A stretch of DNA of 64,000 nt. It comes from a virus. Position 1 is the stretch's first letter; the number at the start of each line of letters is the position of its first letter. Below are positions 35,814-50,026 of the stretch, piece by piece. The translations under genes were made by a program, and so were the position numbers. Location of the stretch: positions 1-64,000 of the IMG/VR virus record IMGVR_UViG_3300035701_000008; one strand, 5' to 3'. The notes under the pieces were generated by a model, which had not been told where the DNA came from, made no database searches, and was given only the letters and a program-made list of their open reading frames with translations.

Positions 35814-36742
35814 TACAAGTATTAGATAAAGATGGGAATACTTCCACCGATGATGGTGGAGTTCTTATATATGATAAGTTTGGACATATAAAAAGAGTTA
35901 CTAGTGGAGGAAGTCCTACAGGACCTGCTGGTGGTGATCTTTCCGGAACCTATCCTAATCCAAATGTTGTATGGGCTAATGGACAACCAACATATGATCT
36001 TGTTTATTATCCTATACCTACAGGAACTATCAGTGATTATATAAGAGGAGATGGTTCCATAGCTGCATTTCCCACTATACCTTCAGGAACAGTTACATCA
36101 GTTGCTGCTCTTACATTAGGAACTACAGGAACAGATTTATCATCATCTGTAGCAACAGGAACAACAACTCCTGTAATAACATTAAATGTTCCAACAGCAT
36201 CAGCCACAAATAGAGGAGCATTAAGTGCTGCAGATTGGACTACGTTTAATAACAAACAAAATGCTTTAGGATATACACCTGTTAGGTTTATTATTAAAGA
36301 CCAAACTCAATATTCTACAGTAACAGGAACAGGAGAAACTTTACAAGGAACTTATTTTATAGCAGCAAATACTTTTTCTTCTAATGATGCAATAAAAATT
36401 ATTCCATTTTTAGCTGAAAAAACAGGAATATTAGGAACATGCACAATGAGAGTAAGAGTGGGATCTTCATCAGCATTTCTTAGTTCAAGTGTAATAGCAA
36501 CATATACTACAGGTATAACTGAACTATGGTGTATTATGCAACGATTAGGATTTACTTTAAGAGGTGGAAATATTAGAGGTATGCTATTTTCTTTATCAAG
36601 ACAATCAGATGTAATAGCCACTGCTGGTGCTATAAGTGTAGGTACTTTTAATCCTGCTGTTAATAATTGGTTTTTCACGTCATTACAGTTATCTGTTGGA
36701 ACAGACTCAATATTTCAATCTAATTTTGTAATGACAAACTAA
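35810..36742 (+). CDS. Putative fibre/decoration protein
   Basis: Fibre-shaft motifs GPAGGDLSGTYPNP, GTVTSVA and FNNKQNALGYTP. Thr/Ser-rich. Confidence 0.6.
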   Translation: MIQVLDKDGNTSTDDGGVLIYDKFGHIKRVTSGGSPTGPAGGDLSGTYPNPNVVWANGQPTYDLVYYPIPTGTISDYIRGDGSIAAFPTIPSGTVTSVAALTLGTTGTDLSSSVATGTTTPVITLNVPTASATNRGALSAADWTTFNNKQNALGYTPVRFIIKDQTQYSTVTGTGETLQGTYFIAANTFSSNDAIKIIPFLAEKTGILGTCTMRVRVGSSSAFLSSSVIATYTTGITELWCIMQRLGFTLRGGNIRGMLFSLSRQSDVIATAGAISVGTFNPAVNNWFFTSLQLSVGTDSIFQSNFVMTN

Positions 36743-36909
36743 TGAAAACAGTAATAGACAAAGAGACAGGAAAAGTTTTATATTGTTTTTTTAACAATAT
36801 GGAAATTGCTGAAAATGAAATAATTATTGAAGCTATACCATTTGGTAATTATTATAATTTTCAAACAAAAGAATTTTATACAGTAATTGAAGAAGTTATT
36901 GAAGAATAA
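36742..36909 (+). CDS. Small acidic protein, possible fibre chaperone (55 aa; not in ORF track)
   Basis: MKTVIDKETGKVLYCFF...YYNFQTKEFYTVIEEVIEE, with TAATG coupling to the fibre gene. Confidence 0.55.
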   Translation: MKTVIDKETGKVLYCFFNNMEIAENEIIIEAIPFGNYYNFQTKEFYTVIEEVIEE

Positions 36910-36993
36910 CTTTTTTACTTATAAAACTTAATATACTAAATAACCAAGTAACAAATAATTATTATATTTTTGTTATTTTAAACATTAAATACA

Positions 36994-38001
36994 ATGGCTA
37001 TACCAAGTAAACAAATAGGATGGGGAACAGAATCAAACCTATTATGGCAAATTGCCAAACAATTACAATATTTAACACAAGTGGCAGGAAATGCTCCTAA
37101 AGGTCCATTCAAATATAATGCTAACGGAACAGGTATAGAACCTTGTTTATTTAGTAATACTTCTAGTGGTACTTATTCAACAATAGGTGGTGGATGTAGA
37201 AATACTGCTTCAGGGCAATGTTCTACAGTGGGAGGTGGTCAAAGTAATATAGCTTGTGGTGATTTGGCTACAATTGGTGGTGGTTATATTAACACTGCTT
37301 ATGGTAATTGTTCAACGATAGGTGGAGGTTTTAGCAATCTTACTGAAGGATGTTCATCTACCGTTGGTGGTGGTAATAATAATACTGCTTCTGGTTTTTA
37401 TACAACAGTTGGTGGAGGTTATAATAATTCAGTAATAATTGGTCGTTCAACAATTAGCGGAGGTTATAACAATACTGCCTCTAGTGATACAACAACAATA
37501 GGTGGTGGATTAGCTAATTCTACATCAGGTTCATACTCAACTGTTGGAGGTGGTAGATATAATATTTCAGGTGGTAGTGGTGCTACAATTAGTGGAGGTA
37601 GTGGGAATACTGCTTCAGGCAACTATTCAGTAATTAGTGGTGGTTGCTCAAACATTGCTTCCTATGGTCATTCAACAATAGGCGGAGGATATGGTAACGA
37701 AGCTAATGGTTATTGCTCGACTATTGGTGGAGGTAAAACAAATAATGCTTCAGGTGCACATTCAGTAATTAGTGGTGGTAGTGATAATGTTGCTGATGGA
37801 AATAGCTCTGCTATTTTAGGGGGTCGCAGTAATGACACTTATGGTTTTTCTTATGCAATGATTGTAGGTAATAGTATACAAGCAAATAGAGCTGATACAA
37901 CATTTGTAAATAACCTTTCAATTATGAATATCCCAACAACTCCTGTAGGTTTGCCAAGCGGTGCTGTATGGAATAGTGGAGGAATATTAACTATAGTTTA
38001 A
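36994..38001 (+). CDS. Second IGGGxxN beta-roll fibre protein (335 aa)
   Basis: Same repeats and near-identical C-terminus (FVNNLSI.NIPT..VGLP.G..W) as 28415, with a different N-terminal module. Confidence 0.7.
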   Translation: MAIPSKQIGWGTESNLLWQIAKQLQYLTQVAGNAPKGPFKYNANGTGIEPCLFSNTSSGTYSTIGGGCRNTASGQCSTVGGGQSNIACGDLATIGGGYINTAYGNCSTIGGGFSNLTEGCSSTVGGGNNNTASGFYTTVGGGYNNSVIIGRSTISGGYNNTASSDTTTIGGGLANSTSGSYSTVGGGRYNISGGSGATISGGSGNTASGNYSVISGGCSNIASYGHSTIGGGYGNEANGYCSTIGGGKTNNASGAHSVISGGSDNVADGNSSAILGGRSNDTYGFSYAMIVGNSIQANRADTTFVNNLSIMNIPTTPVGLPSGAVWNSGGILTIV

Positions 38002-38016
38002 TAAAAATATAAAGAA

Positions 38017-38154
38017 ATGGCAATACCATCAAAACAAATAGGTTGGAGTACACAAAGTAATCTCTTATGGTACATATCAAAAGAATTGGAAAGATTAACA
38101 TGTGTAATGGCTGGTGGCTGTACAACTACTACCACTACTACAACAGTAGCTTAA
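38017..38154 (+). CDS. 45-aa paralog of the 36994 N-terminal module with a Thr8 tail (not in ORF track)
   Basis: MAIPSKQIGWSTQSNLLWYISKELERLTCVMAGGCTTTTTTTTVA. Confidence 0.7.
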   Translation: MAIPSKQIGWSTQSNLLWYISKELERLTCVMAGGCTTTTTTTTVA

Positions 38155-38184
38155 AATAAAAACAAAAATAAAACCAACTACATT

Positions 38185-38790
38185 ATGAAAGATTTAAAAT
38201 TTATCCAGGAAAAATGGTTACCTTGTCCAGGATTTGAAACTTCTTATGAAGTTAGTAATTATGGAAAAGTTAGAAGTATTGATAGATATTGTTCTGGAAG
38301 AAGAGGTCTTATAAAAGGACAAATTATTCATTCTGATTTAAATCAAAAAGGATATCCACAATTAAGACTTTATAATAGTAATAAAAAGTATGTTAGAAAT
38401 CAACATAGATTAGTTGCTTTAGCTTTTATACCTAATCCTAATAACTTACCACAAGTAAATCATATAGATGGTAATAAACTAAACAATCATATATCAAATC
38501 TAGAATGGATTTCAAATTCTGATAACATGAGACATGCATATAAGTTAGGATTAAAATGTAGTAAAGGAGAAAATAATAGTAATTGTAAAATAACAGATAA
38601 TCAAGTAACCCAAATTAAACTTATATACAATAATGGAAAATCTTCTAAAGATATTTCTGAAGAACTAGGTATAAAATTACATATAGTTAGACAAATTATA
38701 AGTGGGAAATCTTGGAAGTCTAATAGAACACCTCTTATGAAAAGAGACGATAGATCAAAAACCAAAAAACCAATATTATGCGTGAATTAA
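38185..38790 (+). mobile_element. Free-standing NUMOD4-HNH homing endonuclease
   Basis: EKW..C.GFE..YEVSNYGKVRS (NUMOD4) and HRLVA.AFIPNP...VNHIDGNKLNN...NLEW (HNH). Confidence 0.88.
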
Positions 38791-39794
38791 AGTTTATACA
38801 AAGTTGCCCAAGCGATATTTATTACACATGGCAAGTAAACCTTTGGATGGAAAGCCTAAAAGAAATAGGACATAGCGATAAAGCTATTAATGTTATCTTT
38901 ATAGCTAAAGGGAGAGAGAATACAGATAAGTGGAAACAAATAGAAAATTTGTATCCAGAAGCAGAGTTTCATTACTATGCAGATGAAGATGATTTAAGTC
39001 GATTGTTAGGAATCTATATTCCTGTTCTACGTCCTTATGTTCTTTGGAAACATTTTAAGAAACATCCAGAGCTAAGTGAAAAAGCTATCTTCTATTGTGA
39101 TAGTGATATTCTATTTATGAAGGATTTTAATGTAGATAAGTTCTTAGAGGATGACATTAGTTACCTATCTGATACAAATAGCTACATCAATGCTAAATAT
39201 TTTGATAGTAAGATTAATCAAGTGCTTCCTGAGAAGCTAGAAGAATATAAGAATAGAGACATTCTTGCAGAAATTGCAAGTGTTGTAGGAATAAGCAGAG
39301 AAATCTGTGAAGCTAATAATGATCATTCAGGAGGAGCACAATATCTATTAAAGAATGTAGATGCAAACTTCTGGAGTAAGGTGATGAATGATTGTATTCT
39401 TATAAGAAGTTATTTACAAACAGTGAATAGAGAATTCTTTAAAGATGAAAATACAGGCTATCAAAGCTGGTGTGCAGATATGTGGGCTGTTCTTTGGAAC
39501 ATCTGGATGAGAGATCAAGAAACAAGAGTGGTCAAAGAATTAGCATTTGCTTGGGCTACAGATCCACTTATCAAATTAGAATCTCATACAATCTTTCATA
39601 ATGCAGGAATAGTTTCTGAAACAGGAAATGGCTATCCAGCTTTCTATAAAGGAAAATATCATATGGGAAGTGATCCAACAAAAGATCCTAACTTAGATGT
39701 TATTCTTAATGATGAGAAAACACAAAAGTATTGTACGTGGTTTTATGCCACTAAATTGAATGAAATTAAAAACAAATATAACCTAGACTATTAA
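38778..39794 (+). CDS. GT-A glycosyltransferase resembling plant HPAT/peptidyl-serine galactosyltransferases (GT95/GT96-like)
   Basis: YYTWQV, YIPVLRPY, IFYCDSDILF (DxD), GGAQY, WCADMWA and IFHNAG motifs. Confidence 0.65.
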   Translation: MRELKFIQSCPSDIYYTWQVNLWMESLKEIGHSDKAINVIFIAKGRENTDKWKQIENLYPEAEFHYYADEDDLSRLLGIYIPVLRPYVLWKHFKKHPELSEKAIFYCDSDILFMKDFNVDKFLEDDISYLSDTNSYINAKYFDSKINQVLPEKLEEYKNRDILAEIASVVGISREICEANNDHSGGAQYLLKNVDANFWSKVMNDCILIRSYLQTVNREFFKDENTGYQSWCADMWAVLWNIWMRDQETRVVKELAFAWATDPLIKLESHTIFHNAGIVSETGNGYPAFYKGKYHMGSDPTKDPNLDVILNDEKTQKYCTWFYATKLNEIKNKYNLDY

Positions 39795-39812
39795 CCCTAA
39801 ATTAAAAAATAA

Positions 39813-40025
39813 ATGGGAAGCATTAATTCAAGACCTTTAAAGGCTTTTGTTCGCTACGATGGTAGCCACAGAATAGTTGCAGGAAGCTTAATCCTTAGAA
39901 AAAATAAGCCAAAAGTAGGTAAGTGGAAAGAAATAAATGCATATGAGTGCTGTTTCCTTAGTACCACTACCACTACAACTACAGTAGCACCAACAACTAG
40001 TACAACAACAACAGGACCATTATAA
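39813..40025 (+). CDS. Small Cys-containing module with poly-Thr tail
   Basis: LKAFVRYDGS...KPKVGKWKEI..YECC followed by a T-rich tail. Confidence 0.7.
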   Translation: MGSINSRPLKAFVRYDGSHRIVAGSLILRKNKPKVGKWKEINAYECCFLSTTTTTTTVAPTTSTTTTGPL

Positions 40026-40027
40026 TC

Positions 40028-40795
40028 ATGAGAAGCAATAATAATAATAAGCTTAAAGCTTTTGTACGTTTTGATGGTTCAGGACGTGTAGTGTCAAGTA
40101 GTTTAATTGTACAAGCATTTAAACCGAAGGTTGGTAATTGGAAAGAAATAGATGCTAAGGAGTGTTGTAATTATACATCCACCACCACATCTACTACCAC
40201 CATACAATCCACTAATTGGACTTTTGTTCCTGATCAACAATTAGTTTGGCCTATTGATCAAAATGGATATACATTATATGAAGGTGAATGGACAGCATTT
40301 GATGATGGACAAACAGTAGATTCATTTCCTTTTGTAGATGATTTTTACGCAACAGGTGTAGCTAGTACTACATTCATTATTGATACTAATGGAAGGGCTA
40401 TGGTTAATGTTAGTAATTGGGATTTATTTGGTAATGGGGGAGATTTATATATAGAACCTGGTACACCTCTTAATGATGGTGATACACAAAACTTTTGGTA
40501 TTTATCAAGTGGACCATCAACTAAATGGAAAAATAGTATATTAGTATATTGTGGACATTGCTGTGGAATTGGATTTGCAGAAAAACCATATTCTTATATA
40601 ATTAATGTATATAGAGATGATACATATCAATATTTAGAAACAAGAATTAAAACAGATAGTTCAATTTCTGGAGTACCTAATGGTGTGGTTGGTATTACTG
40701 GTGCAACAGGTGTTGCAACTGTACAATCACAAGTATGGAGAAGTGGATTATTAGGAGTAGATTGGGCATTATTAGGAAATGGTATAATAATATAA
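40028..40795 (+). CDS. Paralog of 39813 with Thr linker and C-terminal beta-rich (NIDO-like) domain
   Basis: Same N-terminal module, a TSTTTSTTT linker, and a DD.....FPF..DFY.......IDTNG pattern. Confidence 0.6.
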   Translation: MRSNNNNKLKAFVRFDGSGRVVSSSLIVQAFKPKVGNWKEIDAKECCNYTSTTTSTTTIQSTNWTFVPDQQLVWPIDQNGYTLYEGEWTAFDDGQTVDSFPFVDDFYATGVASTTFIIDTNGRAMVNVSNWDLFGNGGDLYIEPGTPLNDGDTQNFWYLSSGPSTKWKNSILVYCGHCCGIGFAEKPYSYIINVYRDDTYQYLETRIKTDSSISGVPNGVVGITGATGVATVQSQVWRSGLLGVDWALLGNGIII

Positions 40796-40810
40796 TATAA
40801 AATAAAAATC

Positions 40811-41230
40811 ATGGCATTAAAATCCCTATTTCCAGAAGAGATGATGGAAGGTAAAGGAGGAGCAACTGGTCTAACATTAGAGACTATTGCAGGGAAGTTA
40901 ACTTATTTTCACTTACAGGCACATCTCCTCCATTGGCAAACAACATCATATGCTCAACACCAAGCTCTTGGTGGATTATATGATTATGTGCATGATTTCA
41001 AAGATGGATTGATAGAGAAGATTATGGGATATACAGGTAAAAGACCTAACCCATATAAAATAGAACCTCTTACAAACTGTACAGCTGGTGAGTGTGTTAA
41101 TAATCTTCTATCTTTTGCTTCAGATTTGAAAGCGTATGGTGAGAAGAATGGTTATCATGATGTATGTAATCTAGCAGATTCATTATCTGGAGAAGCAGCT
41201 AAAGTGCGTTACTTACTAACATTGTCATAA
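40811..41230 (+). CDS. Ferritin/Dps-like four-helix protein (DUF5856-like)
   Basis: HLLHWQTTSYAQHQALGGLYD...D.LIE...YLLTLS. Confidence 0.75.
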   Translation: MALKSLFPEEMMEGKGGATGLTLETIAGKLTYFHLQAHLLHWQTTSYAQHQALGGLYDYVHDFKDGLIEKIMGYTGKRPNPYKIEPLTNCTAGECVNNLLSFASDLKAYGEKNGYHDVCNLADSLSGEAAKVRYLLTLS

Positions 41231-41514
41231 TGGATATAAACAGAAAACATTTTCCTAAGGTGATGCAAGATAATGATGAGACATTTCTTGCACACTTAGA
41301 AGGTGTTATTTCTTCTGTTGATGAACTATGTAGCTTAGAGATAACAAAGAGCTTAGAATCATATAGATTCAGAATAGCATGTAGTCTTCCTAAGTATAAC
41401 AATATGGTGATTGAAGAAATATTGAAATTCTGTAATATGTTTAAAATAAGAATAAACATGAGTAAATCAATAAAGACAAGTTCAGTAATCAGTTTTGAAA
41501 TAACAATTAACTAA
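41230..41514 (+). CDS. Hypothetical protein
   Basis: 94-aa ORF with TAATG coupling. Confidence 0.65.
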   Translation: MDINRKHFPKVMQDNDETFLAHLEGVISSVDELCSLEITKSLESYRFRIACSLPKYNNMVIEEILKFCNMFKIRINMSKSIKTSSVISFEITIN

Positions 41515-41515
41515 A

Positions 41516-41977
41516 ATGGTAAGACAACACGGTTTTGATACTAGATCTCCTGAATATCATAGAATGAGATATATATGTAAAAAGAATAAAATTTCTTTTG
41601 CAGAATATTATAATAATATAGAAAAGTATAATGTATATACTAGAAGAAAAAAACATTTACATTTAGAACAATATAGTGCTGAATATTATAAAACAATTTG
41701 GTTAAAAAAGAAATATAAAATAACCTTAGAAGAATATAATGAAATGTTAAATAAACAAAAAGGAGTTTGTGCAATTTGTGAAAATCCTGAAACAACTATT
41801 AATAAAAAAACAGGTGAGACTATTAATTTGGCTGTAGATCATGATCATTTAACAGGAAAAAACAGAGGACTTTTATGCACTTCTTGTAATAGAGGTTTAG
41901 GCTGTTTTAGAGATAGTGTTAAGTACTTAGATAATGCTAAAAAATATATAAGTAATCATAACAATAATCAAGTGTAA
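41516..41977 (+). mobile_element. Free-standing endonuclease VII-family homing endonuclease
   Basis: Y.ITLEEYNEML..Q...CAIC...LAVDHDH.TGK.RGLLC..CN.GLG.F.D. Confidence 0.82.
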
Positions 41978-42005
41978 TAACATTTGAAATAAATTTAGAA
42001 CAATA

Positions 42006-42992
42006 ATGGCAACATTTATAAAAGCTGGATTTTGGGAGCAATTATGTAAACCTTGTACAGGATACAAAGGATGGCTTAATTTAACAAAGTTTGTACAGGA
42101 TACAGCTTCTGAAATAGTAGGTCCTCAAGGTCCTCAAGGAGTGCAAGGCCCACAAGGAATACAAGGAGTACAAGGAGATCAAGGAATACAAGGTGAAACA
42201 GGAGAACAAGGAACAGCAGGTAATTCTGTTACAATTCTTGGTTCATATGCAAATTTAGCAGCATTTAATGCTGGTGCAGGTTCTTTACCTGGAGCTAATA
42301 TAGGTGATGCATGGATTCTTTTATCTGATGGTAGCCTTATGACATGGAATGGCACAGCATGGTTTGATGCTGGAGATATAAAAGGTCCACAAGGTGATCA
42401 GGGAATTCAAGGAATACAGGGACCTCAAGGAGAACAGGGTATTCAGGGGGTACAAGGTATACAAGGACCTGTTGCTCCTTCTACTAGTTTGTTTGCTCAA
42501 ACAGCAAACTCAACACCTGTAACAGGAACTATAGTAGAAAGTACATTAATAGGTACAGGAGTAGGAAGTTTATCTGTTCCTGCAAATGGATTTCAAGTGG
42601 GGGATAGTTTTAGAGCTGTATTTGGTGGTGTTATGAATGCTGCAAATAACCAGACTATTAGAATTAAATTAAAAGCTGGTTCTGTTATTCTTTTAGATAG
42701 TGGTATACAAGATCTTGGAAGTAGTATTGTAGATGATGTATGGAGTTTAAATGTTGATTTTACAATCAGACAAGTTGGAGCTGCTACTGTAGCATCTATC
42801 GTATCATTAGGATCTTTTCATTACACAAAAACTAACAATGCTTCTGTTCAAGGATTTGGTTTTAATGTTGTAAACAATACAACATTCAATACAACAATTA
42901 GCAATACATTAAATTTCACTGTACAATGGGGATCTACTAGTGGTAGTAATTCTATTTATAGTGATATATTTATATTAAACAAAACGTACTAA
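42006..42992 (+). CDS. Collagen-like (GXY) fibre/decoration protein
   Basis: Two GPQGxQ triplet tracts and a beta-rich C-terminal domain. Confidence 0.75.
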   Translation: MATFIKAGFWEQLCKPCTGYKGWLNLTKFVQDTASEIVGPQGPQGVQGPQGIQGVQGDQGIQGETGEQGTAGNSVTILGSYANLAAFNAGAGSLPGANIGDAWILLSDGSLMTWNGTAWFDAGDIKGPQGDQGIQGIQGPQGEQGIQGVQGIQGPVAPSTSLFAQTANSTPVTGTIVESTLIGTGVGSLSVPANGFQVGDSFRAVFGGVMNAANNQTIRIKLKAGSVILLDSGIQDLGSSIVDDVWSLNVDFTIRQVGAATVASIVSLGSFHYTKTNNASVQGFGFNVVNNTTFNTTISNTLNFTVQWGSTSGSNSIYSDIFILNKTY

Positions 42993-43057
42993 ATAAATTT
43001 GTTTATTACAAAAACATTATTTACTTTTACTGTTAATTTTTTAAAAACCAATTTATT

Positions 43058-43312
43058 ATGGCAACTTACAATCCTGCTAAAAAGTACACATGGACTCCTG
43101 AAGACACATTCACTATCTCAGGACAAGATTTCGGTCTAATTCTAAACACTGTTAGATCTTATTTATCATCAGAAGAAGCAGCACGCTTTCAATTGATGGT
43201 TAAAGCTAATGAAGTGGTTGAGAGATTAATGATAGAAGGTGTAGAAGCTGATATCATTAAGGAAGTCTCAGAAAATCCTACAGAAGCTCCTACAATGCAA
43301 GTTGTAGATTAA
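43058..43312 (+). CDS. Hypothetical protein
   Basis: 84-aa ORF following an AT-rich leader. Confidence 0.6.
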   Translation: MATYNPAKKYTWTPEDTFTISGQDFGLILNTVRSYLSSEEAARFQLMVKANEVVERLMIEGVEADIIKEVSENPTEAPTMQVVD

Positions 43313-43370
43313 CATTAACATACCTGTTGGGTGAAGAATAACAGGTGTTCCAGAACAAAAGCACTTCTCT

Positions 43371-43574
43371 ATGAGAATATACGAACCAAAGAATAGAATA
43401 GATGTTACAACACCCAAGGGAGATGGGATAATATGGCTTGTTACAGAATATGGACCAGAGACAGACACCATCTATACAATTATAATAGACAATACAGGTG
43501 AGATGTGGCAATACACTCACAAAGATATAATCGTTAAACCCAATATAACATTTAAACGCTATGGCAACAATTAA
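43371..43574 (+). CDS. Hypothetical protein
   Basis: 67-aa ORF overlapping the next start. Confidence 0.55.
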   Translation: MRIYEPKNRIDVTTPKGDGIIWLVTEYGPETDTIYTIIIDNTGEMWQYTHKDIIVKPNITFKRYGNN

Positions 43575-43938
43575 AAAAGCACAATCTGGATCTAAATTAA
43601 AAAAAGACGAATTTAGATTAAAAGCTCTTAAGTTTGAAGAAACTAAAAAACAGAACGCTATAAACAATTCTAGAGAAGATGCTAAAAGAGCTGAAAAAAA
43701 TATAGAAAAAAGGCCTCGTTTAGAAGGTAAGAAAATGAAGAACGGTGGTTCTTTATCTGGACTTAAAGCCTCCAACAAAAGAGTTGGTCCTGTAGATCCT
43801 AAAGGAGCATTCACAAAGGTGCAAAAGAAAACATTAGCTGGTGCTAAAGGAAAAGCTTCTCTTACAAAAGATAAGCAACTTGGTGCTACAAAAATGGCTA
43901 AGACTGGTGCTAAAATGTCTAAAGGTAAAAAATGCTAA
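43561..43938 (+). CDS. Small Lys-rich protein
   Basis: Highly basic, with KKAQSG, MKNGG and MAKTG motifs. Confidence 0.65.
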   Translation: MATIKKAQSGSKLKKDEFRLKALKFEETKKQNAINNSREDAKRAEKNIEKRPRLEGKKMKNGGSLSGLKASNKRVGPVDPKGAFTKVQKKTLAGAKGKASLTKDKQLGATKMAKTGAKMSKGKKC

Positions 43939-43941
43939 GTA

Positions 43942-44184
43942 ATGGCTACAGCTAAAAAGATTAGTTGCTGGAAAGGTTATGCTAAGAAAGGCACAAAGAA
44001 GAAAGGAAATAAGACAGTGAACAACTGTGTTAAAATCACGCCTAAAGCTAAAGATGGTAAGTGGATACAAAAAGCAATTAATCCTGCACATAAGGGATAT
44101 TGCACTCCTATGACCAAAGCTACATGCACTCCCAAACGTAAAGCTCTTGCTAAAACATTACGTAAAATATCTAAAAAGAAATAA
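43942..44184 (+). CDS. Small Lys-rich Cys-containing protein
   Basis: CWKGY...NNCVK and KWIQKAI...CTP...CTP modules. Confidence 0.65.
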   Translation: MATAKKISCWKGYAKKGTKKKGNKTVNNCVKITPKAKDGKWIQKAINPAHKGYCTPMTKATCTPKRKALAKTLRKISKKK

Positions 44185-44186
44185 TT

Positions 44187-44486
44187 ATGTCTAAGTTAAA
44201 TCCTCAGAAAGCTACAGCATATGTAGGCCCTGGTGTATTACGTAAAGGTGGTAAAATTACTCCTGTTCCTAATGGTCCTCTTATTAAGAAGAAGGGCCCT
44301 TTTAAAGGAAGCACATTGAAAGCTGGTGGTATGATTAAACGTGCTGATGGTTCTATGTCAAGAAGAGGACTTTGGGATAATTTGAGAAGCAAAGCAGCTC
44401 AAAATAAAAAGACTGGTGCAAAACCTAAATCTCCTAGTAAAGCAATGTTGACTCAGGAGAAAAAAATAAAATCTAAAGGAAAATGA
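44187..44486 (+). CDS. Small Lys-rich protein
   Basis: LRKGG, LKAGG and GLWDNLR motifs. Confidence 0.65.
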   Translation: MSKLNPQKATAYVGPGVLRKGGKITPVPNGPLIKKKGPFKGSTLKAGGMIKRADGSMSRRGLWDNLRSKAAQNKKTGAKPKSPSKAMLTQEKKIKSKGK

Positions 44487-45106
44487 TATTAGATATTAGT
44501 AATGAACATAAACAAAAATACTTTTCTCAGAAAGAGAAAGGAGGAGTTATTTATAAAATTACTAATCAAATTGATGGTAAATTCTATATAGGAAGTACAA
44601 ACAATTTGATAAAAAGATATTACACTCATATTAACCACATAAGAACTAATAAATCTACATGTGTAAAACTGATTAGAGCAGTTAATAAACATGGAGAAGA
44701 TAACTTCACATTTGAAATTTTATGTGAATGTTCTACTGAAGAAATACTAAAGACTGAACAAAGTTACATAGATAGTTTAAATCCTACTTATAACATTGCT
44801 AAAATTGCTGGAAGTAATCTTGGAATTAAGAGAACAGAAGAAGTTAAACTTAAAAAATCTATATCTCAAAAAGAAAATTGGAAAGATGATGATTATAGAA
44901 GTAAACATTTAGAAAATTTATCAAAGAATTGGAAAAGTGGAGCTTCTCATAGAATGGCTAAGCTTACAGAAGAACAAGTAATTGAAATTAAAAAACAATT
45001 AGCAAGTGGTCTTTTACCTAAACAGGTAGCAGATAAACTTGAACTTAGTTATTACTCTATAAAAGATATTCATAGAGGAAAGACTTGGAAAAATATAAAC
45101 ATTTAA
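44483..45106 (+). mobile_element. Free-standing GIY-YIG homing endonuclease
   Basis: VIYKITN..DGKFYIGST..R...H, EQ.YID...P.YN, a NUMOD3-like segment and a C-terminal HTH (AKLTEEQV). Confidence 0.85.
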
Positions 45107-45118
45107 AACTAAGAAATA

Positions 45119-45388
45119 ATGGCAACACCAGCATGGACTAGATCTGAAGGAAAAGATCCAAAAGGAGGATTAAATAGAAAAGGAGTGGCTTCATATAGAA
45201 AAGCTAATCCTGGAAGTAAATTAAAAATGGCTGTTACAACAAAACCTTCCAAACTTAAACCTGGAAGTAAATCAGCTAATAGAAGAAAATCATTCTGTGC
45301 AAGAATGTCAGGAGTAAAAGGTCCTGCAAAGAAACCTAATGGAGAACCTACAAGAAAAACTCTTGCTCTTCGTAAATGGAATTGTTAA
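45119..45388 (+). CDS. Small basic protein (DUF6321-like)
   Basis: GKDPKGGLN.KG...RRKSFCARM...LRKWNC. Confidence 0.7.
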   Translation: MATPAWTRSEGKDPKGGLNRKGVASYRKANPGSKLKMAVTTKPSKLKPGSKSANRRKSFCARMSGVKGPAKKPNGEPTRKTLALRKWNC

Positions 45389-45408
45389 CAATTAAACAAT
45401 AATATATT

Positions 45409-45891
45409 ATGGCAATTATGAAAAAACCTGCTAAAAAAATGCAAGCAGGAGGTTCTTTAAAACCTACATACAAAAACTTAGGACTTGCTAGATCTGCATC
45501 TAATAATGCAGCAGGTAGAGATACTAATACACCAGCTACTAAAAAGGATAGTCTTGATTATAAAAAAGGATTTGACATGGGTAAAGCTGGTAAAAAACCT
45601 AGTTCTCTTAGAGCTAAGTATGAAGGTAAAAATCAATATGAAGAAAAAGGGAGATGGGAAGGACAAAACTCTACAAAAACTAAAACTATGAAAAAAGCTA
45701 AAAATGGTAAATCATTTCCTGATTTAAACAAAGATGGAAAGATTACAAAAGCTGATATTCTTAAAGGACGTGGTGTTATAGCTAAGAAAGGTGCTACAGT
45801 TAAGAAAGCACAATATGGTGGAGCAACTGCTTCTATGGTGCCTATGAAATCTGGTGGCAAAATGACCAAATGCAAATACGGGTGTAACTAA
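45409..45891 (+). CDS. Basic protein with EF-hand-like DLNKDGKITKAD loop
   Basis: MQAGG, AKNG, AQYGG and MKSGG motifs plus FPDLNKDGKITKADIL. Confidence 0.65.
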   Translation: MAIMKKPAKKMQAGGSLKPTYKNLGLARSASNNAAGRDTNTPATKKDSLDYKKGFDMGKAGKKPSSLRAKYEGKNQYEEKGRWEGQNSTKTKTMKKAKNGKSFPDLNKDGKITKADILKGRGVIAKKGATVKKAQYGGATASMVPMKSGGKMTKCKYGCN

Positions 45892-46052
45892 TGACTTCTG
45901 GTAAAGCTAAAAAGAGTGGTAAGCCTAGAATGGCTCCTAAAGTGGGTATTCCTAAGAAGGATAAACCATTCTCACAGAATAAGTCTATGGATGATAAAAT
46001 CAGAAGAACTTCTGCTCAGCAACCAATGAAAAAGAAAAGTTTAGCAAAATAA
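45891..46052 (+). CDS. Small basic protein (53 aa; not in ORF track)
   Basis: MTSGKAKKSGKPRMAPKV...KKKSLAK, TAATG-coupled and ending at the terminator. Confidence 0.6.
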   Translation: MTSGKAKKSGKPRMAPKVGIPKKDKPFSQNKSMDDKIRRTSAQQPMKKKSLAK

Positions 46053-46053
46053 T

Positions 46054-46080
46054 AAAAGCCTCTATTAAGAGGCTTTTTTT
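46054..46080. terminator. Bidirectional intrinsic terminator at the strand switch
   Basis: Perfect hairpin AAAAGCCTCT-atta-AGAGGCTTTT with A- and T-runs on either side, between convergent blocks. Confidence 0.85.
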
Positions 46081-46696
46081 ATAATTGTTTTTTTAATTTA
46101 CTTCCCCAAGAGGATACATTTGAAGCATGTTCTAAATAATATCTCCATTCTTCTGGAATTTCATTTAAATACCAAGGAACATGCTTAATACAATAAGGTT
46201 TATCTAACCTAATTGCATTATAAGTGAATGGTGAGTTAGGTGGATATAATGCAAATGTAGTGTCTATATCAGCAATCCAACCATGTTCATTTTTATTAAC
46301 CCAGAACTTACTTTCCCAGTTTATTATATTCTGTCTAAGAGGTGTTTCAGGTAGATCTAAATCTAAAGAGAATCCTACCTTTATATTATCTTTTGCAATG
46401 TTTAACATTACATCTAGCCAATCATCTGGAACTCCTTCATAAGAACAATCTGAATCAGCTATTATAAAATAATCTGTTAAGTGTTGTTTTAAGTCATCTC
46501 CCCATACACTATGAGGACCTCCATTAACTTTAGAATATACAATCTCTACAGGACAAGTTTTGTAGTATTCTAACAATGGTGGGTATGTAGATTGTTGATC
46601 ATATATAATCACATCTATTCTACTCTCCTTAGATAGAAATTCTACTGTTTCTTTGAGTGTAGATAGGAGATTTCTATTTACTATTATTGCTTTCAT
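46079..46696 (-). CDS. Glycosyltransferase, GT2-like
   Basis: IIVNRN, IIYDQQSTYPPLL and FIIADSD (DxD) motifs. Confidence 0.7.
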   Translation of the reverse strand: MKAIIVNRNLLSTLKETVEFLSKESRIDVIIYDQQSTYPPLLEYYKTCPVEIVYSKVNGGPHSVWGDDLKQHLTDYFIIADSDCSYEGVPDDWLDVMLNIAKDNIKVGFSLDLDLPETPLRQNIINWESKFWVNKNEHGWIADIDTTFALYPPNSPFTYNAIRLDKPYCIKHVPWYLNEIPEEWRYYLEHASNVSSWGSKLKKQL

Positions 46697-47447
46697 TAAG
46701 AAAATCTTTTAGCATTTGTGAGTAGTCTTTATTCCAATGAGGAATAAGTTGAACATTTCCTGTGGGAATCAAATCTTTTTTTCTTAAATCTTCTATATAG
46801 TCACTGTGTCTTTGTATAACATTAGGTCTATCAGGAGTATCTGTTCCAAGACCAGATTGATGATAACCTCTACCACCCCACATATAAAACCAAGAGGCTT
46901 CTGATTCAGGCATTTTTGCATCAACAACATATTGTCTACCTAGAGCATGTATCTTATTAACTAATGTCATATCACCTCCAGCATTTTGTATAGGACTTTT
47001 ACCTATTTGCTCCCAAACTTTTTTACTATATACAATACCTGAATTACCAAGACCCATTATTTTTGTTATCTCAGGCTCATTATAAAATACACCTGTTTCC
47101 CAATGAATAATATTTGTATCTTCTTTCCAAAACTTAGCTATATTAGATAGGTGATTTGGTAAAGCTACATCATCATCATCCCATACAGCTATTAATTCTC
47201 CAGAGCATTGTTCTATTGCAAAATTTTCTTTATCTCCTATAGTGGCAAATGTTCCATCTATATTATAAATCTTTATTTCTGGATGATTATACACTAACTT
47301 CTGTAGAGGGTAATCATTAACTATAATAAGTTCTTTCTTACCAGGATACTCTTGTTGGAGGAAACTTTGTATTGCTTCCTCCAGAGTATCTACTCTTCCA
47401 TAAGTAATACATTTTGCAGAAATCATAGGAAATTCTTTATTTTCCAT
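46674..47447 (-). CDS. Glycosyltransferase family 2
   Basis: TYGR...LEEAIQSFLQQEY..KELIIVND and AVWDDDD motifs. Confidence 0.85.
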   Translation of the reverse strand: MENKEFPMISAKCITYGRVDTLEEAIQSFLQQEYPGKKELIIVNDYPLQKLVYNHPEIKIYNIDGTFATIGDKENFAIEQCSGELIAVWDDDDVALPNHLSNIAKFWKEDTNIIHWETGVFYNEPEITKIMGLGNSGIVYSKKVWEQIGKSPIQNAGGDMTLVNKIHALGRQYVVDAKMPESEASWFYMWGGRGYHQSGLGTDTPDRPNVIQRHSDYIEDLRKKDLIPTGNVQLIPHWNKDYSQMLKDFLNESNNSK

Positions 47448-47448
47448 A

Positions 47449-48075
47449 TTATAAATATTTAAAATTTGTTTTGTTTCTGTTTCTATTATTTAACATGGCA
47501 CTTAACGTACAAGGTTTCATATTAATACTTTCTGCAGCTTTTTTACAAGTATCAAATTTTTCACCAGTAACAATATTAATAACATATTTAGATGTATTGT
47601 TTCTATAGTTTTTATTTTTTCCTTTAGCTGCTAAAGATTTTTTAACTTTATCTTCTTCTGATAATTTTTTACCTTTATTTCCTTTAGAAATTTTATCTTT
47701 ATGTTCTTGAGTTAATGTTCTACCAATATTTTTAGCTCCACATTTTTTATTTATTTCTTTAGATGATCCAACTCTACCATCTCCTCCATTAGTATGGTTT
47801 ACTAAAATACCTGTTTGTAAATCTTCTCTACCATATAAAGAAATTAATCTTTGCTCTTCTAAAAAAGCTTCTTCTTTTGTACACTTATCAAGAACTATAT
47901 CAACTATAAAACCATATTTAGAAGATGTATTGTGCCAAAATTCACTACGACTTCTTAATCCTTTCCAATTAACAGCATTAGCTCTTTGATAATTATCAAA
48001 AGATAATAACCCTCCTACACCTATGTAAAAGGGTTGATTATTATCTTTTCTTATATGTACATAAACATAAGCCAT
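47449..48075 (-). mobile_element. Free-standing GIY-YIG-like homing endonuclease with NUMOD3/NUMOD1 tail
   Basis: YVYVHIR....PFYIG.G, E..LI..YGR.....G.LVN.T.GGDG and EHKDKISKGNKGKK motifs. Confidence 0.82.
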
Positions 48076-48076
48076 A

Positions 48077-48118
48077 TTATATTGTTATACATTTGCAACT
48101 AATGAAAGGATATTCCAT
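48077..48118 (-). pseudogene. Stranded 5' remnant of the GT2 gene (MEYPFISCKCITI*)
   Basis: Aligns with the GT2 N-terminus MENKEFPMISAKCITY on the other side of the endonuclease. Confidence 0.75.
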
Positions 48119-48120
48119 AA

Positions 48121-48405
48121 TTACAGTATTTCTACTATATCAAATATAGAAACTAATAATACACTAGTATCACCTTTAGGAATAACTAACGATTTGCTTA
48201 ATGCTGCAGGATCTACAAACACACTAGCTCCTACAACAAGATCTGGATCTGTAATAGCTGTACCTACAGAATGCACTGTAAGACTAGACATCTTCTTAAT
48301 CATTTCTTTTTCTAAAGCTTCTTTTGTATTCTCATCTACAATAAGCTTACCTTCTTCTTTCTTTGGGAGTTCTAAATAAACTCTGTTTCCTAATAATTTA
48401 GCCAT
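48121..48405 (-). CDS. GroES-like co-chaperonin
   Basis: KLLGNRVYL...V.SVG......LVVG..V....LLV...DIV pattern, 94 aa. Confidence 0.6.
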   Translation of the reverse strand: MAKLLGNRVYLELPKKEEGKLIVDENTKEALEKEMIKKMSSLTVHSVGTAITDPDLVVGASVFVDPAALSKSLVIPKGDTSVLLVSIFDIVEIL

Positions 48406-48411
48406 GGTTAT

Positions 48412-48681
48412 TTATTTTTCTGTTTTTTTAAAAAATCTTTCAGCATCTGCTGCATTCAATATAATTTCTGATTGTACTGTTTCTCTAACAGTTTTATATC
48501 CTTTCATCTTATTAGTTCTAATATCAATGTCAGGTTGTTGTGTAACACGTTCATTGAAATCATCTAATATAACAATAAGACTTCCATCTTCATTAGTTAA
48601 GGATCTAATCACCTTGTTAATGTTTAAAGAGGCTTTATATTCCTTGTCAGCTATTACAGCTGTGTAAATAAATTGATTCAT
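48412..48681 (-). CDS. Hypothetical protein
   Basis: 89-aa ORF in a tightly packed operon. Confidence 0.65.
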   Translation of the reverse strand: MNQFIYTAVIADKEYKASLNINKVIRSLTNEDGSLIVILDDFNERVTQQPDIDIRTNKMKGYKTVRETVQSEIILNAADAERFFKKTEK

Positions 48682-48686
48682 GTTGG

Positions 48687-48947
48687 TTATTTGTTAAGGG
48701 TTATTTCATCTAATATTTGATTGTACATACTCAAAGGCATATTACCAGATTGTCTATGTACTTCTTTTCCATCTTTTAGAAACACAATTGTAGGAAGACT
48801 TCTTACGCCATATTTTATAGCTGTTTCTCTATCTTTCTCTATGTCAATGTTGGTTATTCCTTCTACATCTTTTAATGTTTGAGCTAACACTCTACAAGGT
48901 CCACACCAACTTGCACTAAACTTAAGCACTTCTATACTATTTTCCAT
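48687..48947 (-). CDS. trxA: Thioredoxin
   Basis: FSASWCGPC active site and YGVRSLPT (cis-Pro) motif. Confidence 0.92.
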   Translation of the reverse strand: MENSIEVLKFSASWCGPCRVLAQTLKDVEGITNIDIEKDRETAIKYGVRSLPTIVFLKDGKEVHRQSGNMPLSMYNQILDEITLNK

Positions 48948-49587
48948 ATATATAATCTAATATTTTTCCAACTAATCCACTTCTGTGGTTAGCTTGTAGT
49001 TTAATCCATTTTATACCATCTATGTTTTTAGATAGTTCTATTGCAAAATCTAATCCTGTATAAGATTCATTTGTATCTCTTTGGGAATTGTCACCATTAA
49101 TAACTATTTTACCTGTAGTACCAAGTCTAGTTAGAATAGCTTCCATTTCTTTTTTAGTTAAGTTTTGAGCTTCTTCTACAATAAGAATATCATCTATAGT
49201 TTTACCTCTGATAAACTGTATAGGAAGAGCTTGTATCTTTCCATTCTTTACAAAATCATCCACTTTAATTCTATCTGTACATTTGTACAAGTTTTCAAGC
49301 AAAGCTTCCATATATGGATTAAACTTTTCTTTTAAATCTCCAGGAAGAAATCCTAAAGACTTACCCACTTCAATAGCACTTCTAGCTACTAGCACTTTGT
49401 CACATTGTTTAGTGTTCAGAAAATCTAATGCTGTAATAGCTCCCACTAATGATTTACCACTTCCTGCTCTTCCTGTAATAATAACAATTTGATTGTCTAT
49501 TATTAGTTCTTTAGCAAGTTTCTGTTCATCATTGAGAACTACATTATACTTAATCTCACTTTTTCTAGCTCTGTTAGGTTCTTTCAT
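48937..49587 (-). CDS. phoH: PhoH-like ATPase
   Basis: GRAGSGKS, LGFLPGDL.EK, FIRGKT, EEAQN, LTRLG and GD..Q.D motifs. Confidence 0.92.
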   Translation of the reverse strand: MKEPNRARKSEIKYNVVLNDEQKLAKELIIDNQIVIITGRAGSGKSLVGAITALDFLNTKQCDKVLVARSAIEVGKSLGFLPGDLKEKFNPYMEALLENLYKCTDRIKVDDFVKNGKIQALPIQFIRGKTIDDILIVEEAQNLTKKEMEAILTRLGTTGKIVINGDNSQRDTNESYTGLDFAIELSKNIDGIKWIKLQANHRSGLVGKILDYIYGK

Positions 49588-50026
49588 ATTTAGTTAATAA
49601 ATGGTTACGTCTTTTATTCACCTCTTCATATCTATACATATCATTTTCTACATTGCTATGTTCAAGAAGGGACAATAATACGATATTTTCTTCATCTAAA
49701 CAAGCTTCTGGATATTTTTCTTTTGGAAGAATATGATGGAAGTATGTAGACATAGCTTCACTACCAAGATAAACATCACTCACTTCTGACCTATGTGGTC
49801 TTTTGTTCCATACAGATAGAAAGAACTGCCTCATTTCCAAAAACTTACTAGGAGATTTGTCCAGTTTTTTCGATAATAAACTGGACTTTTGTATGGTTTT
49901 CCCACCACTAATCCCCTTTTTAGAGGTTAATGATGGGTTTACCCTACTTTGTTGCAATACTTTTCTAGGTTTATGCTGAAAGCAATATTCTCCATCAGAA
50001 TTCTTTCCACATGTTTTACACTTCAT
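49574..50026 (-). CDS. HNH-like protein with N-terminal CxxC..C..H zinc finger
   Basis: CKTCG....YCFQH and FHHILPKEKYPE....ENIVLL...EH motifs. Confidence 0.6.
   Translation of the reverse strand: MKCKTCGKNSDGEYCFQHKPRKVLQQSRVNPSLTSKKGISGGKTIQKSSLLSKKLDKSPSKFLEMRQFFLSVWNKRPHRSEVSDVYLGSEAMSTYFHHILPKEKYPEACLDEENIVLLSLLEHSNVENDMYRYEEVNKRRNHLLTKYERT

Follow-up and report, generated by a model that had tools for sequence, protein, structure and literature searches.

Four endonuclease genes flanked by native and divergent host-gene ends in a phage genome: probable homing cassettes without introns or inteins

The stretch of 64,000 nucleotides (nt) analyzed here, hereafter the window, comprises bases 1-64000 of the IMG/VR virus record IMGVR_UViG_3300035701_000008, a complete genome of 113,586 bp with direct terminal repeats. 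The genes of this phage are tightly packed, with stop and start codons that often overlap (TAATG, ATGA) or lie 1-13 nt apart, and four of them, between positions 38,155 and 48,118, harbor an endonuclease open reading frame (ORF) inside their terminal codons. How can endonucleases of different families occupy the ends of host genes and leave these genes whole? We found that, as an earlier note made from the letters of this sequence had claimed for three sites, with a weaker trace at the fourth, two versions of the same host-gene terminus flank the endonuclease at all four sites. The version joined to the gene body completes the host ORF and is divergent, with insertions and deletions (indels), whereas the version identical to that of relatives is stranded beyond the endonuclease and is not functional. 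In all likelihood, these are four free-standing homing cassettes, in which the endonuclease and a divergent host-gene end form a unit that spreads without an intron or intein.

For comparison, we used more than 130 related phage loci from IMG/VR, denoted by L and a number (L145 and L116 are one and the same contig), the majority of which lack the four endonuclease genes.

Four endonucleases without introns or inteins

The endonuclease genes of the window are:

38185..38790, + strand: HNH homing endonuclease with NUMOD4 and HNH_3 domains, 201 amino acids (aa) (Pfam, PHROG 59)
41516..41977, + strand: Endonuclease VII (EndoVII)-type homing endonuclease, 153 aa (Pfam PF02945, E-value 4.5e-23)
44483..45106, + strand: GIY-YIG homing endonuclease, 207 aa, the start of which overlaps the host stop (ATGA) (Pfam PF01541)
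47449..48075, - strand: GIY-YIG-like (I-TevI-like) homing endonuclease, 208 aa (PHROG 314 'homing endonuclease', E-value 6.5e-23)

All four ORFs are intact, with full nuclease-domain matches, and each encodes a nuclease of a recognized homing-endonuclease family; when the whole genome was screened by BLAST and for motifs, no further endonucleases of these kinds were detected. For the 47449-48075 protein, there was no Pfam nuclease match, and a sequence search of the PDB was empty as well. Only the comparison of folds was informative: in a model built with ten homologues in the alignment (mean predicted local distance difference test score, pLDDT, of 69), residues 1-99 matched the I-TevI catalytic domain modestly (Z 5.9, root-mean-square deviation 4.0, 78 residues), and residues 158-208 matched the I-TevI DNA-binding domain (Z 3.4), with the top ranks all taken by GIY-YIG proteins. 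Because these scores are modest, we call this predicted enzyme GIY-YIG-like. The HNH (38185-38790) and GIY-YIG (44483-45106) enzymes have a C-terminal module in common (28% identity over 82 residues, E-value 2.6e-4), which suggests that DNA-binding domains could have been shuffled between nuclease families.

The arrangement involves neither an intron nor an intein, as the earlier note had already concluded for introns, because no Rfam intron family matched within 36000-50000, even at E-values up to 1, the gap between the endonuclease ORF and the host frames is 0-1 nt at each site, which leaves no room for such an element, and stop codons lie between the frames. Given that the endonuclease ORFs are all fused to, overlap with, or lie 1 nt from host frames, they probably use the expression signals of the host genes.

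Two versions of a host-gene end at each site

At site 1, the HNH gene occupies the 5' end of a gene that we denote GT1 (GT, glycosyltransferase):

38171..38208, + strand: stranded native copy, consisting of the GT1 leader and codons 1-8, the latter being the first 8 HNH codons
38764..38840, + strand: replacement, with leader and start codon both new and GT1 codons 1-12 divergent
38778..39794, + strand: GT1, 338 aa, GT-A fold, host gene of site 1

The HNH gene is absent from about 58 of the 59 related loci that cover the GT1 start, the exception being L086, where the enzyme is 92% identical. In the HNH-free loci, GT1 opens with a conserved leader and eight codons that correspond to window positions 38171-38207; the stranded copy is identical to this empty-site consensus at 37/37 nt and, over a longer stretch, at 42/44 nt. 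The NUMOD4 domain begins only at residue 9 of the HNH protein, which means that host codons 1-8 have become an in-frame extension of the enzyme. GT1 is now started from 38778, and both this start codon and the shorter leader copy that belongs to it are located within the 3' part of the HNH gene. Compared with the empty-site consensus, this replacement start, which is also present in L086 alongside the HNH gene, has 10 differences in its first 39 coding nt, and one Lys codon has become an Arg codon through the change of all three bases; the differences are concentrated in codons 2-12, and the two sequences are identical from codon 14. The window and L086 are 90-100% identical from 38157 to about 38840, compared with about 40% upstream, where the neighbor genes are different, and 73-90% in the GT1 body. 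On sequence grounds, this high-identity block, 38157-38840, is the predicted cassette.

At site 3, the GIY-YIG-like endonuclease gene occupies the 5' end of a second glycosyltransferase gene, GT2:

48077..48118, - strand: native start of GT2, stranded as a mini-ORF of 13 codons, the end of which is 1 nt from the endonuclease ATG
47400..47447, - strand: codons 1-16 of GT2 in the replacement version, which has 3 inserted codons
46674..47447, - strand: GT2, family-2 glycosyltransferase, host gene of site 3 (PF00535, E-value 6e-12)

In most of about 78 relatives, GT2 follows an upstream 94-aa gene (48121-48405 in the window) within 5-13 nt, and the first 35 nt of GT2 in one empty allele (L014) are identical to window positions 48118-48084 (35/35). 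In the window, GT2 restarts 1 nt past the endonuclease stop, the native sequence resumes at about codon 16, and a 10-nt exact direct repeat is found at the endonuclease start and at the new GT2 start. A motif of the replacement start is native in distant GT2 lineages. L044 shares the replacement start (15 residues are identical), on a GT2 of just 59% overall identity. This locus retains its own stranded start and the replacement, with 12 nt of the endonuclease tail between them and the endonuclease itself gone, and is apparently the footprint of a deleted endonuclease. The same GT2 junction harbors a 239-aa endonuclease of PHROG 681 in L006, L007 and L017, and a NUMOD4-HNH endonuclease in L018 and L019, each with its own divergent GT2 start, so that three different endonuclease families occupy the GT2 start across the relatives. 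Replacement of the 3' end of the upstream gene by the L006/L007/L017 element was considered and rejected: the upstream gene keeps the native-like copy, and it is GT2 that is preceded by the divergent one, making this element a leader/start replacement, like that at site 1. The label 'GroES-like' for the upstream 94-aa gene was dropped as well, there being no Pfam or PHROG match.

At site 2, the EndoVII-type gene is located at the 3' end of a different 94-aa gene:

41479..41514, + strand: replacement C-terminus, 11 codons and stop, of the 94-aa gene 41230-41514
41968..42006, + strand: stranded native C-terminus, 12 codons and stop

In endonuclease-free relatives, the stop of this gene adjoins or overlaps the start of a tail-fibre gene. 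In the window, the stop of the stranded copy shares bases with the ATG of the collagen-like tail-fibre gene, and the endonuclease stop lies within this copy, in another frame. The stranded copy matches the empty alleles of L083 and L129 at 32/33 nt, and the functional end (41479-41514) differs from every endonuclease-free allele in the last codons. The right junction is the same in L145, which has a stranded copy of its own backbone type and a different replacement end. The L145 enzyme is longer, with a NUMOD4-like N-terminal domain, missing from the window enzyme, and an EndoVII domain 73% identical to that of the window. In L089, the L145-type replacement end is accompanied by only the last 37 enzyme codons.

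The endonuclease-free alleles of the 94-aa gene 41230-41514 form two classes that encode the same Ser-Ser pair with the codon families swapped; between 41479-41484 and 41968-41973, this swap amounts to six base differences and no amino-acid change. These allele classes may be a trace of past endonuclease sweeps. The collagen-repeat tail-fibre gene (42006-42992) is hypervariable: relatives match only the first 30-60 residues or carry other genes in its place, and metagenome contigs skip from 41996 to 43071.

At site 4, the GIY-YIG gene is located at the 3' end of a 99-aa Lys-rich gene:

44356..44486, + strand: replacement C-terminus, about 35-45 codons, of the 99-aa Lys-rich gene 44187-44486
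45105..45119, + strand: stranded remnant, the last 4 native codons and a stop that overlaps the start codon of the following gene (45119-45388)

In endonuclease-free relatives, the 99-aa gene ends in a conserved 28-codon module, with its stop overlapping the next start, whereas in the window, it ends in a different, 34-codon tail. The remnant together with the start of the next gene matches empty alleles at 18/18 nt. The replacement tail type was found at 10/10 loci that carry the GIY-YIG gene and at none of the endonuclease-free loci, and stranded copies in relatives range from 5 to about 33 codons (about 25 in L006, L007 and L043; at least 33 in L013). The distribution of the GIY-YIG gene is patchy, with 11 loci at 71-98% identity on backbones that are only 58-89% identical. 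Between the window and L075, identity is 80-95% over 44338-45088 and about 40% in the flanks, the block starting at 44338-44356. The enzyme is 98% identical in L010, where GT2 is 83% and the flanking genes are 83-87% identical, and 85% identical in L075, where GT2 is 58% identical. This discrepancy between enzyme and GT2 argues for horizontal spread of the GIY-YIG gene. The family of the 99-aa protein has conserved N- and C-terminal modules and a central insert of 0 to about 110 residues (L114, L141, L139, L134).

Features common to the sites

Across the carriers, cassette identity is 80-100% within the block and about 40% outside it. At sites 1-4, replacement-type ends were found only together with an endonuclease, a remnant or a footprint, and none of the cassettes seen had a native-type replacement. 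Close relatives differ in the presence or absence of an endonuclease at the same site, with intact empty sites; in most of them, the two host genes adjoin each other directly. The replacement termini are in all likelihood foreign and are linked to the endonucleases, as indicated by the complete linkage, the indels and the distant-allele motif. Various stages of decay are represented among the relatives, namely, a footprint without an endonuclease, a truncated endonuclease, and stranded copies of varied length.

To exclude spurious similarity of the flanks, the exact matches of 33-37 nt to empty alleles were compared with 100 shuffles, in which 0 matches are expected. The query strings for sites 1 and 3 came from endonuclease-free relatives, and each had a single match in the window, at the stranded position, with 0 mismatches; the 33-nt query for site 2 was the window's own stranded copy, which is 1 nt off the L083/L129 allele.

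Several claims of the earlier note can be refined in the light of these comparisons. As it predicted, the stranded version is continuous with the gene body in relatives devoid of the endonuclease, and the junction falls at the expected codons; the metagenome contigs described below agree. The proposed repair of the host gene is supported as well: with the replacement ends, all four host ORFs are full length, single and uninterrupted, and have the same length as in relatives save for small indels. The fourth site, which had been taken for a weaker trace, is a real one, with a stranded copy that has decayed to 4 codons and a stop and is longer in relatives. The copies had been put at 8-13 codons; the replacement tracts are longer than these visible repeats. 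At site 1, the co-transferred tract comprises about 12-20 codons, reaching about GT1 codon 20, and at site 4, the replacement spans about 35-48 codons, with DNA corresponding to about 20 and about 45 host codons, respectively, transferred along with the endonuclease. Finally, the two versions had been described as similar in protein and recoded in DNA. The divergence is confirmed; 'recoded' does not fit the indels (the 3-codon insertion at site 3 and the 34 versus 28 codons at site 4).

The occupied and empty forms also coexist. Contigs of four sediment metagenome runs over 38100-48200 include endonuclease-free joints along with occupied forms in the same runs: the joint from 38199 to 38793 in one run, that from 44355 to 45103 in three, and that from 47409 to 48090 in all four. 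In the likely source sample, the depth of the last joint is 37.6, compared with 48.6 for the occupied form. At the EndoVII site, contigs of the likely source run are almost absent over 41470-43491, a gap from which nothing is inferred. We treat these joints as secondary evidence that agrees with the IMG/VR loci.

Both genes targeted at the 5' end are conserved glycosyltransferases, as had been proposed. GT2 matches Pfam Glycos_transf_2 and has at least 112 relatives. GT1, with at least 67 relatives and 62 related loci, had no sequence-family match, and a PDB sequence search was empty; its structural model (pLDDT 83, predicted template modelling score 0.85) matched GT-A glycosyltransferases in Foldseek with E-values of about 1e-6 to 1e-5, and the protein contains an invariant DxD-type motif.

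A fifth site

One further site of this kind was detected through a relative:

43521..43574, + strand: empty allele of site 5, where the 67-aa gene 43371-43574 has its native 3' end, overlapping the next start

In L110 (7370-8150), the counterpart of the 67-aa gene has, within its 3' end, an endonuclease 37% identical to the 47449 protein. A divergent 16-codon end lies upstream of this endonuclease, and the native end, which matches the window at 51/54 nt, lies downstream and still supplies the overlapping start of the next gene. Thus, the duplication in L110 also un-overlaps two genes. Candidates in relatives were picked with a DNA alignment of flank against flank for 36 endonuclease ORFs, which served for this purpose only, being of low power (the proven site-4 cassette had a z near 0).

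The phage and neighboring features

The GC content of the sequence is about 31%. A megablast search of the region against cultured phage records gave no match; the closest isolate for the GT1 protein is Chryseobacterium phage MA9V-3, at 34% identity. A conserved A-rich leader with AAACCAA is present 5-8 nt ahead of many starts (38165-38184, 38764-38777 and in relatives), and intergenic stretches of relatives contain TAnnTTTG-like motifs; together, these fit Bacteroidota-type expression signals. Because the nearest cultured relative by GT1 protein is a Chryseobacterium phage and such TAnnTTTG-like motifs lie between the genes of relatives, the host is likely a member of the Bacteroidota.

GT1 is flanked by two paralogue pairs (36994-38154 and 39813-40795) that have an N-terminal module in common; one member of each pair is short, with a poly-Thr tract at the end. 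Where two gene blocks converge, at 45968-46082, sub-threshold Rfam matches were obtained (sraL, 32 bits, compared with a cut-off of 39), a signal that probably reflects a mere bidirectional terminator hairpin.

Relation to known systems

The closest precedents of these elements are the mobile endonuclease ORFs (mORFs) of fungal mitochondria and the MobA element of T4. Fungal mORFs make 'gene hybrids' in atp6 of Allomyces macrogynus and in atp6, atp9, cox2 and nad3 of Glomus (PMC3630166 and work cited there). In these, as in the phage, the endonuclease ORF lies near the end of a gene, the body of the gene continues in frame into a foreign terminus, and its native counterpart lies stranded downstream; moreover, the native copy matches endonuclease-free relatives, and the inserted copy is divergent in DNA and similar in protein (PMC3630166). 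Unlike the fungal elements, those described here reside in a phage genome and involve four enzyme families (HNH, EndoVII-type and two GIY-YIG types), the tracts that they duplicate are far shorter, with the frames tightly coupled or fused, and sites 1 and 3 replace the 5' end with a leader and start codon, which PMC3630166 does not report.

The MobA element of T4-like phages consists of mobA and the gene 60 bypass cassette in a topoisomerase gene (bioRxiv 10.1101/2022.08.31.505936). It resembles the present elements in that a free-standing phage HNH gene lies in a coding region and a divergent homologous region replaces the host codons around its own nick site, and endonuclease swaps and clean endonuclease loss occur among relatives. 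However, MobA deletes the native codons, which are stranded at the phage sites described here; it splits the host protein in two and adds extensions, whereas the host ORFs here are single and continuous; and its protection relies on a 50-nt translational bypass, which is not needed here. The seg and mob genes of T4 are likewise free-standing GIY-YIG and HNH genes with patchy presence and co-conversion of flanking markers, but they are intergenic, between conserved genes (PMC2988022), whereas all four endonuclease genes described here lie inside terminal codons of host genes and duplicate these. Intergenic location is a descriptive trait of the T4 endonucleases rather than a mechanistic requirement. 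For the EndoVII-type enzyme, F-CphI, a free-standing cyanophage endonuclease with an Endo VII catalytic motif that targets an intron insertion site in psbA, shows that homing endonucleases of this type exist, as assumed for 41516-41977; the likeness is limited to the common Pfam family, and F-CphI is not reported with a duplicated terminus (PMC6083498). We found no description of stranded plus replacement termini in phages in the open-licence literature, to which the search was confined, so that this is not proof of absence.

Proposed mechanism and alternative explanations

The proposed mechanism is as follows. A 5' cassette comprises a divergent copy of the leader and start codon of the host gene, and a 3' cassette, one of the last codons and stop. 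The cassette-borne end completes the host gene at full length, and the native end lies beyond the endonuclease, where it forms the first 8 endonuclease codons (site 1), a 13-codon leader mini-ORF (site 3), or a tail that provides the overlapping start of the next gene (sites 2 and 4). In a mixed infection, the target of the enzyme would be the undisrupted native allele of a relative that lacks it, cut near the junction; with the occupied genome as template, repair would then copy the endonuclease together with the replacement end, and one of the homology arms would be the stranded copy. The allele type of the stranded copies is that of the local backbone, as seen in the window and L145 at site 2 and in two last-codon variants at site 4, which fits strand invasion starting in the stranded copy. 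Given that ordinary homing would not make a stranded copy, each element presumably originated in one founding illegitimate join, followed by regular homing. The replacement ends would most likely have begun as alleles of divergent phages that were brought by that join at first entry; they look like imported foreign alleles rather than deliberate recodings because they contain indels and the start motif of site 3 is native in distant GT2 lineages. After fixation, the endonuclease and the stranded copy would decay.

Several observations weigh against this interpretation. Target sites, enzyme activity and immunity are all inferred. Recent mobility is best shown for the 44483 element only because the HNH and 47449 cassettes are rare in IMG/VR: the HNH cassette was found on one other contig, and the 47449 cassette on none, the enzyme search yielding one distant relative, so that the spread of neither could be traced. 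Lacking the N-terminal domain of its relative, the EndoVII enzyme of the window may be inactive or partly decayed. The sides of the metagenome joints are short (21-30 nt) and flagged as less reliable, as expected when only the stranded stub is held in common. Furthermore, in three relatives (L140:479-1225, L100:4039-4749 and L101:5019-5729), a member of the 47449 endonuclease family is situated between GT1 and the gene that follows, and no terminus duplication was detected; the window has an 18-nt spacer at this position. The layout is therefore frequent and not obligatory, and may be the form that insertion takes where there is no spacer. Hence, the general mode in this lineage that the earlier note had proposed gains from the fifth site and the three families at the GT2 start, and is not universal.

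The role of the divergent end is a separate matter. We lean, by a small measure, towards the view that the divergence of the replacement ends, at about a quarter of the positions (10/39 nt at site 1), would spare the carrier from self-cleavage, a logical expectation given that the gene body is joined to the replacement end in exactly the way it is in the target. In the work on SegF and SegG, protection of the carrier was reportedly attributed to target sequence polymorphism. In the case of MobA, however, polymorphisms in the homologous region that the element carries were not by themselves enough to prevent nicking (bioRxiv 10.1101/2022.08.31.505936), so that divergence need not mean immunity. 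This result favors an alternative with the same layout, in which the replacement end is a hitch-hiking co-conversion tract that has no protective role and the carrier is safe because its site is split or because the enzyme cuts elsewhere, as T4 seg and mob enzymes often do, away from their insertion sites (PMC2988022); tracts with indels that resemble alleles of distant lineages are also what imported DNA would look like. Nevertheless, the replacement joins the gene body just as the native end does, and an undiverged copy would rebuild the site; the differences at site 1 are packed in codons 2-12 and then end abruptly; and, as noted, no cassette with a native-type replacement was seen. On balance, we consider hitch-hiking without protection unlikely, albeit the strongest of the competing explanations.

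It is less probable still that the endonucleases are now immobile relics or domesticated genes and the duplicated ends functionless fossils of old insertions. The missing N-terminal domain of the window EndoVII enzyme, the degenerate and deleted forms in L089 and L044, and the rarity of the HNH and 47449 cassettes are compatible with such a history, but the four ORFs are intact with full nuclease-domain matches, occupied and empty alleles occur in the same samples, and the 44483 element far exceeds its surroundings in identity (98% in L010 against 83-87% for the flanks; 85% in L075 against 58% for the backbone). An origin of the two copies as an exact, transposon-like target-site duplication that diverged later would account for the direct repeats around each endonuclease, including the 10-nt exact repeat that brackets the 47449 ORF. 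Under this scenario, drift would be expected to alter the non-functional copy, and the opposite is the case: the non-functional copy matches relatives, and the constrained, functional copy has diverged. Given also that the repeats, with lengths from 24 to more than 100 nt, differ by indels, and that neither a transposase nor inverted repeats are present, the endonuclease being the only ORF between the repeats, we regard this origin as very improbable. No points in favor were found for endonucleases residing in self-splicing introns or inteins, or for flank similarity arising by chance in AT-rich sequence; with the Rfam results, the tight frames and the exact matches to empty alleles described above, their probability is next to nil. 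Homing cassettes that carry a replacement host-gene end thus remain the interpretation that we prefer.

Biological implications

Homing cassettes of this type would explain short orphan ORFs, odd N-terminal extensions of endonucleases and locally divergent gene ends, all of which annotation and pangenome pipelines misread. They also imply that a single phage lineage has at least four unrelated nuclease families that use, at both gene ends, a trick known from fungal mitochondria. The natural sets of empty, occupied, footprint and decayed alleles, with predicted target sites of 30-50 bp, make specificity and self-immunity directly testable.

A broader proposal, which we put forward tentatively, at a little under even chances, is that terminus replacement is a general, family-independent lifestyle of endonucleases in spacer-free phage genomes, with the divergent end as the determinant of immunity; that the 5' version, in which the gene receives a new leader and start and the old start goes to the endonuclease, is an undescribed class; and that sweeps followed by loss leave footprints of resistant alleles. 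If true, such footprints would explain sharp dimorphisms of gene ends in endonuclease-free phages, for example, the two serine-codon families of the 94-aa gene 41230-41514. Selfish elements may steadily supply allelic replacement at the ends of conserved phage genes.

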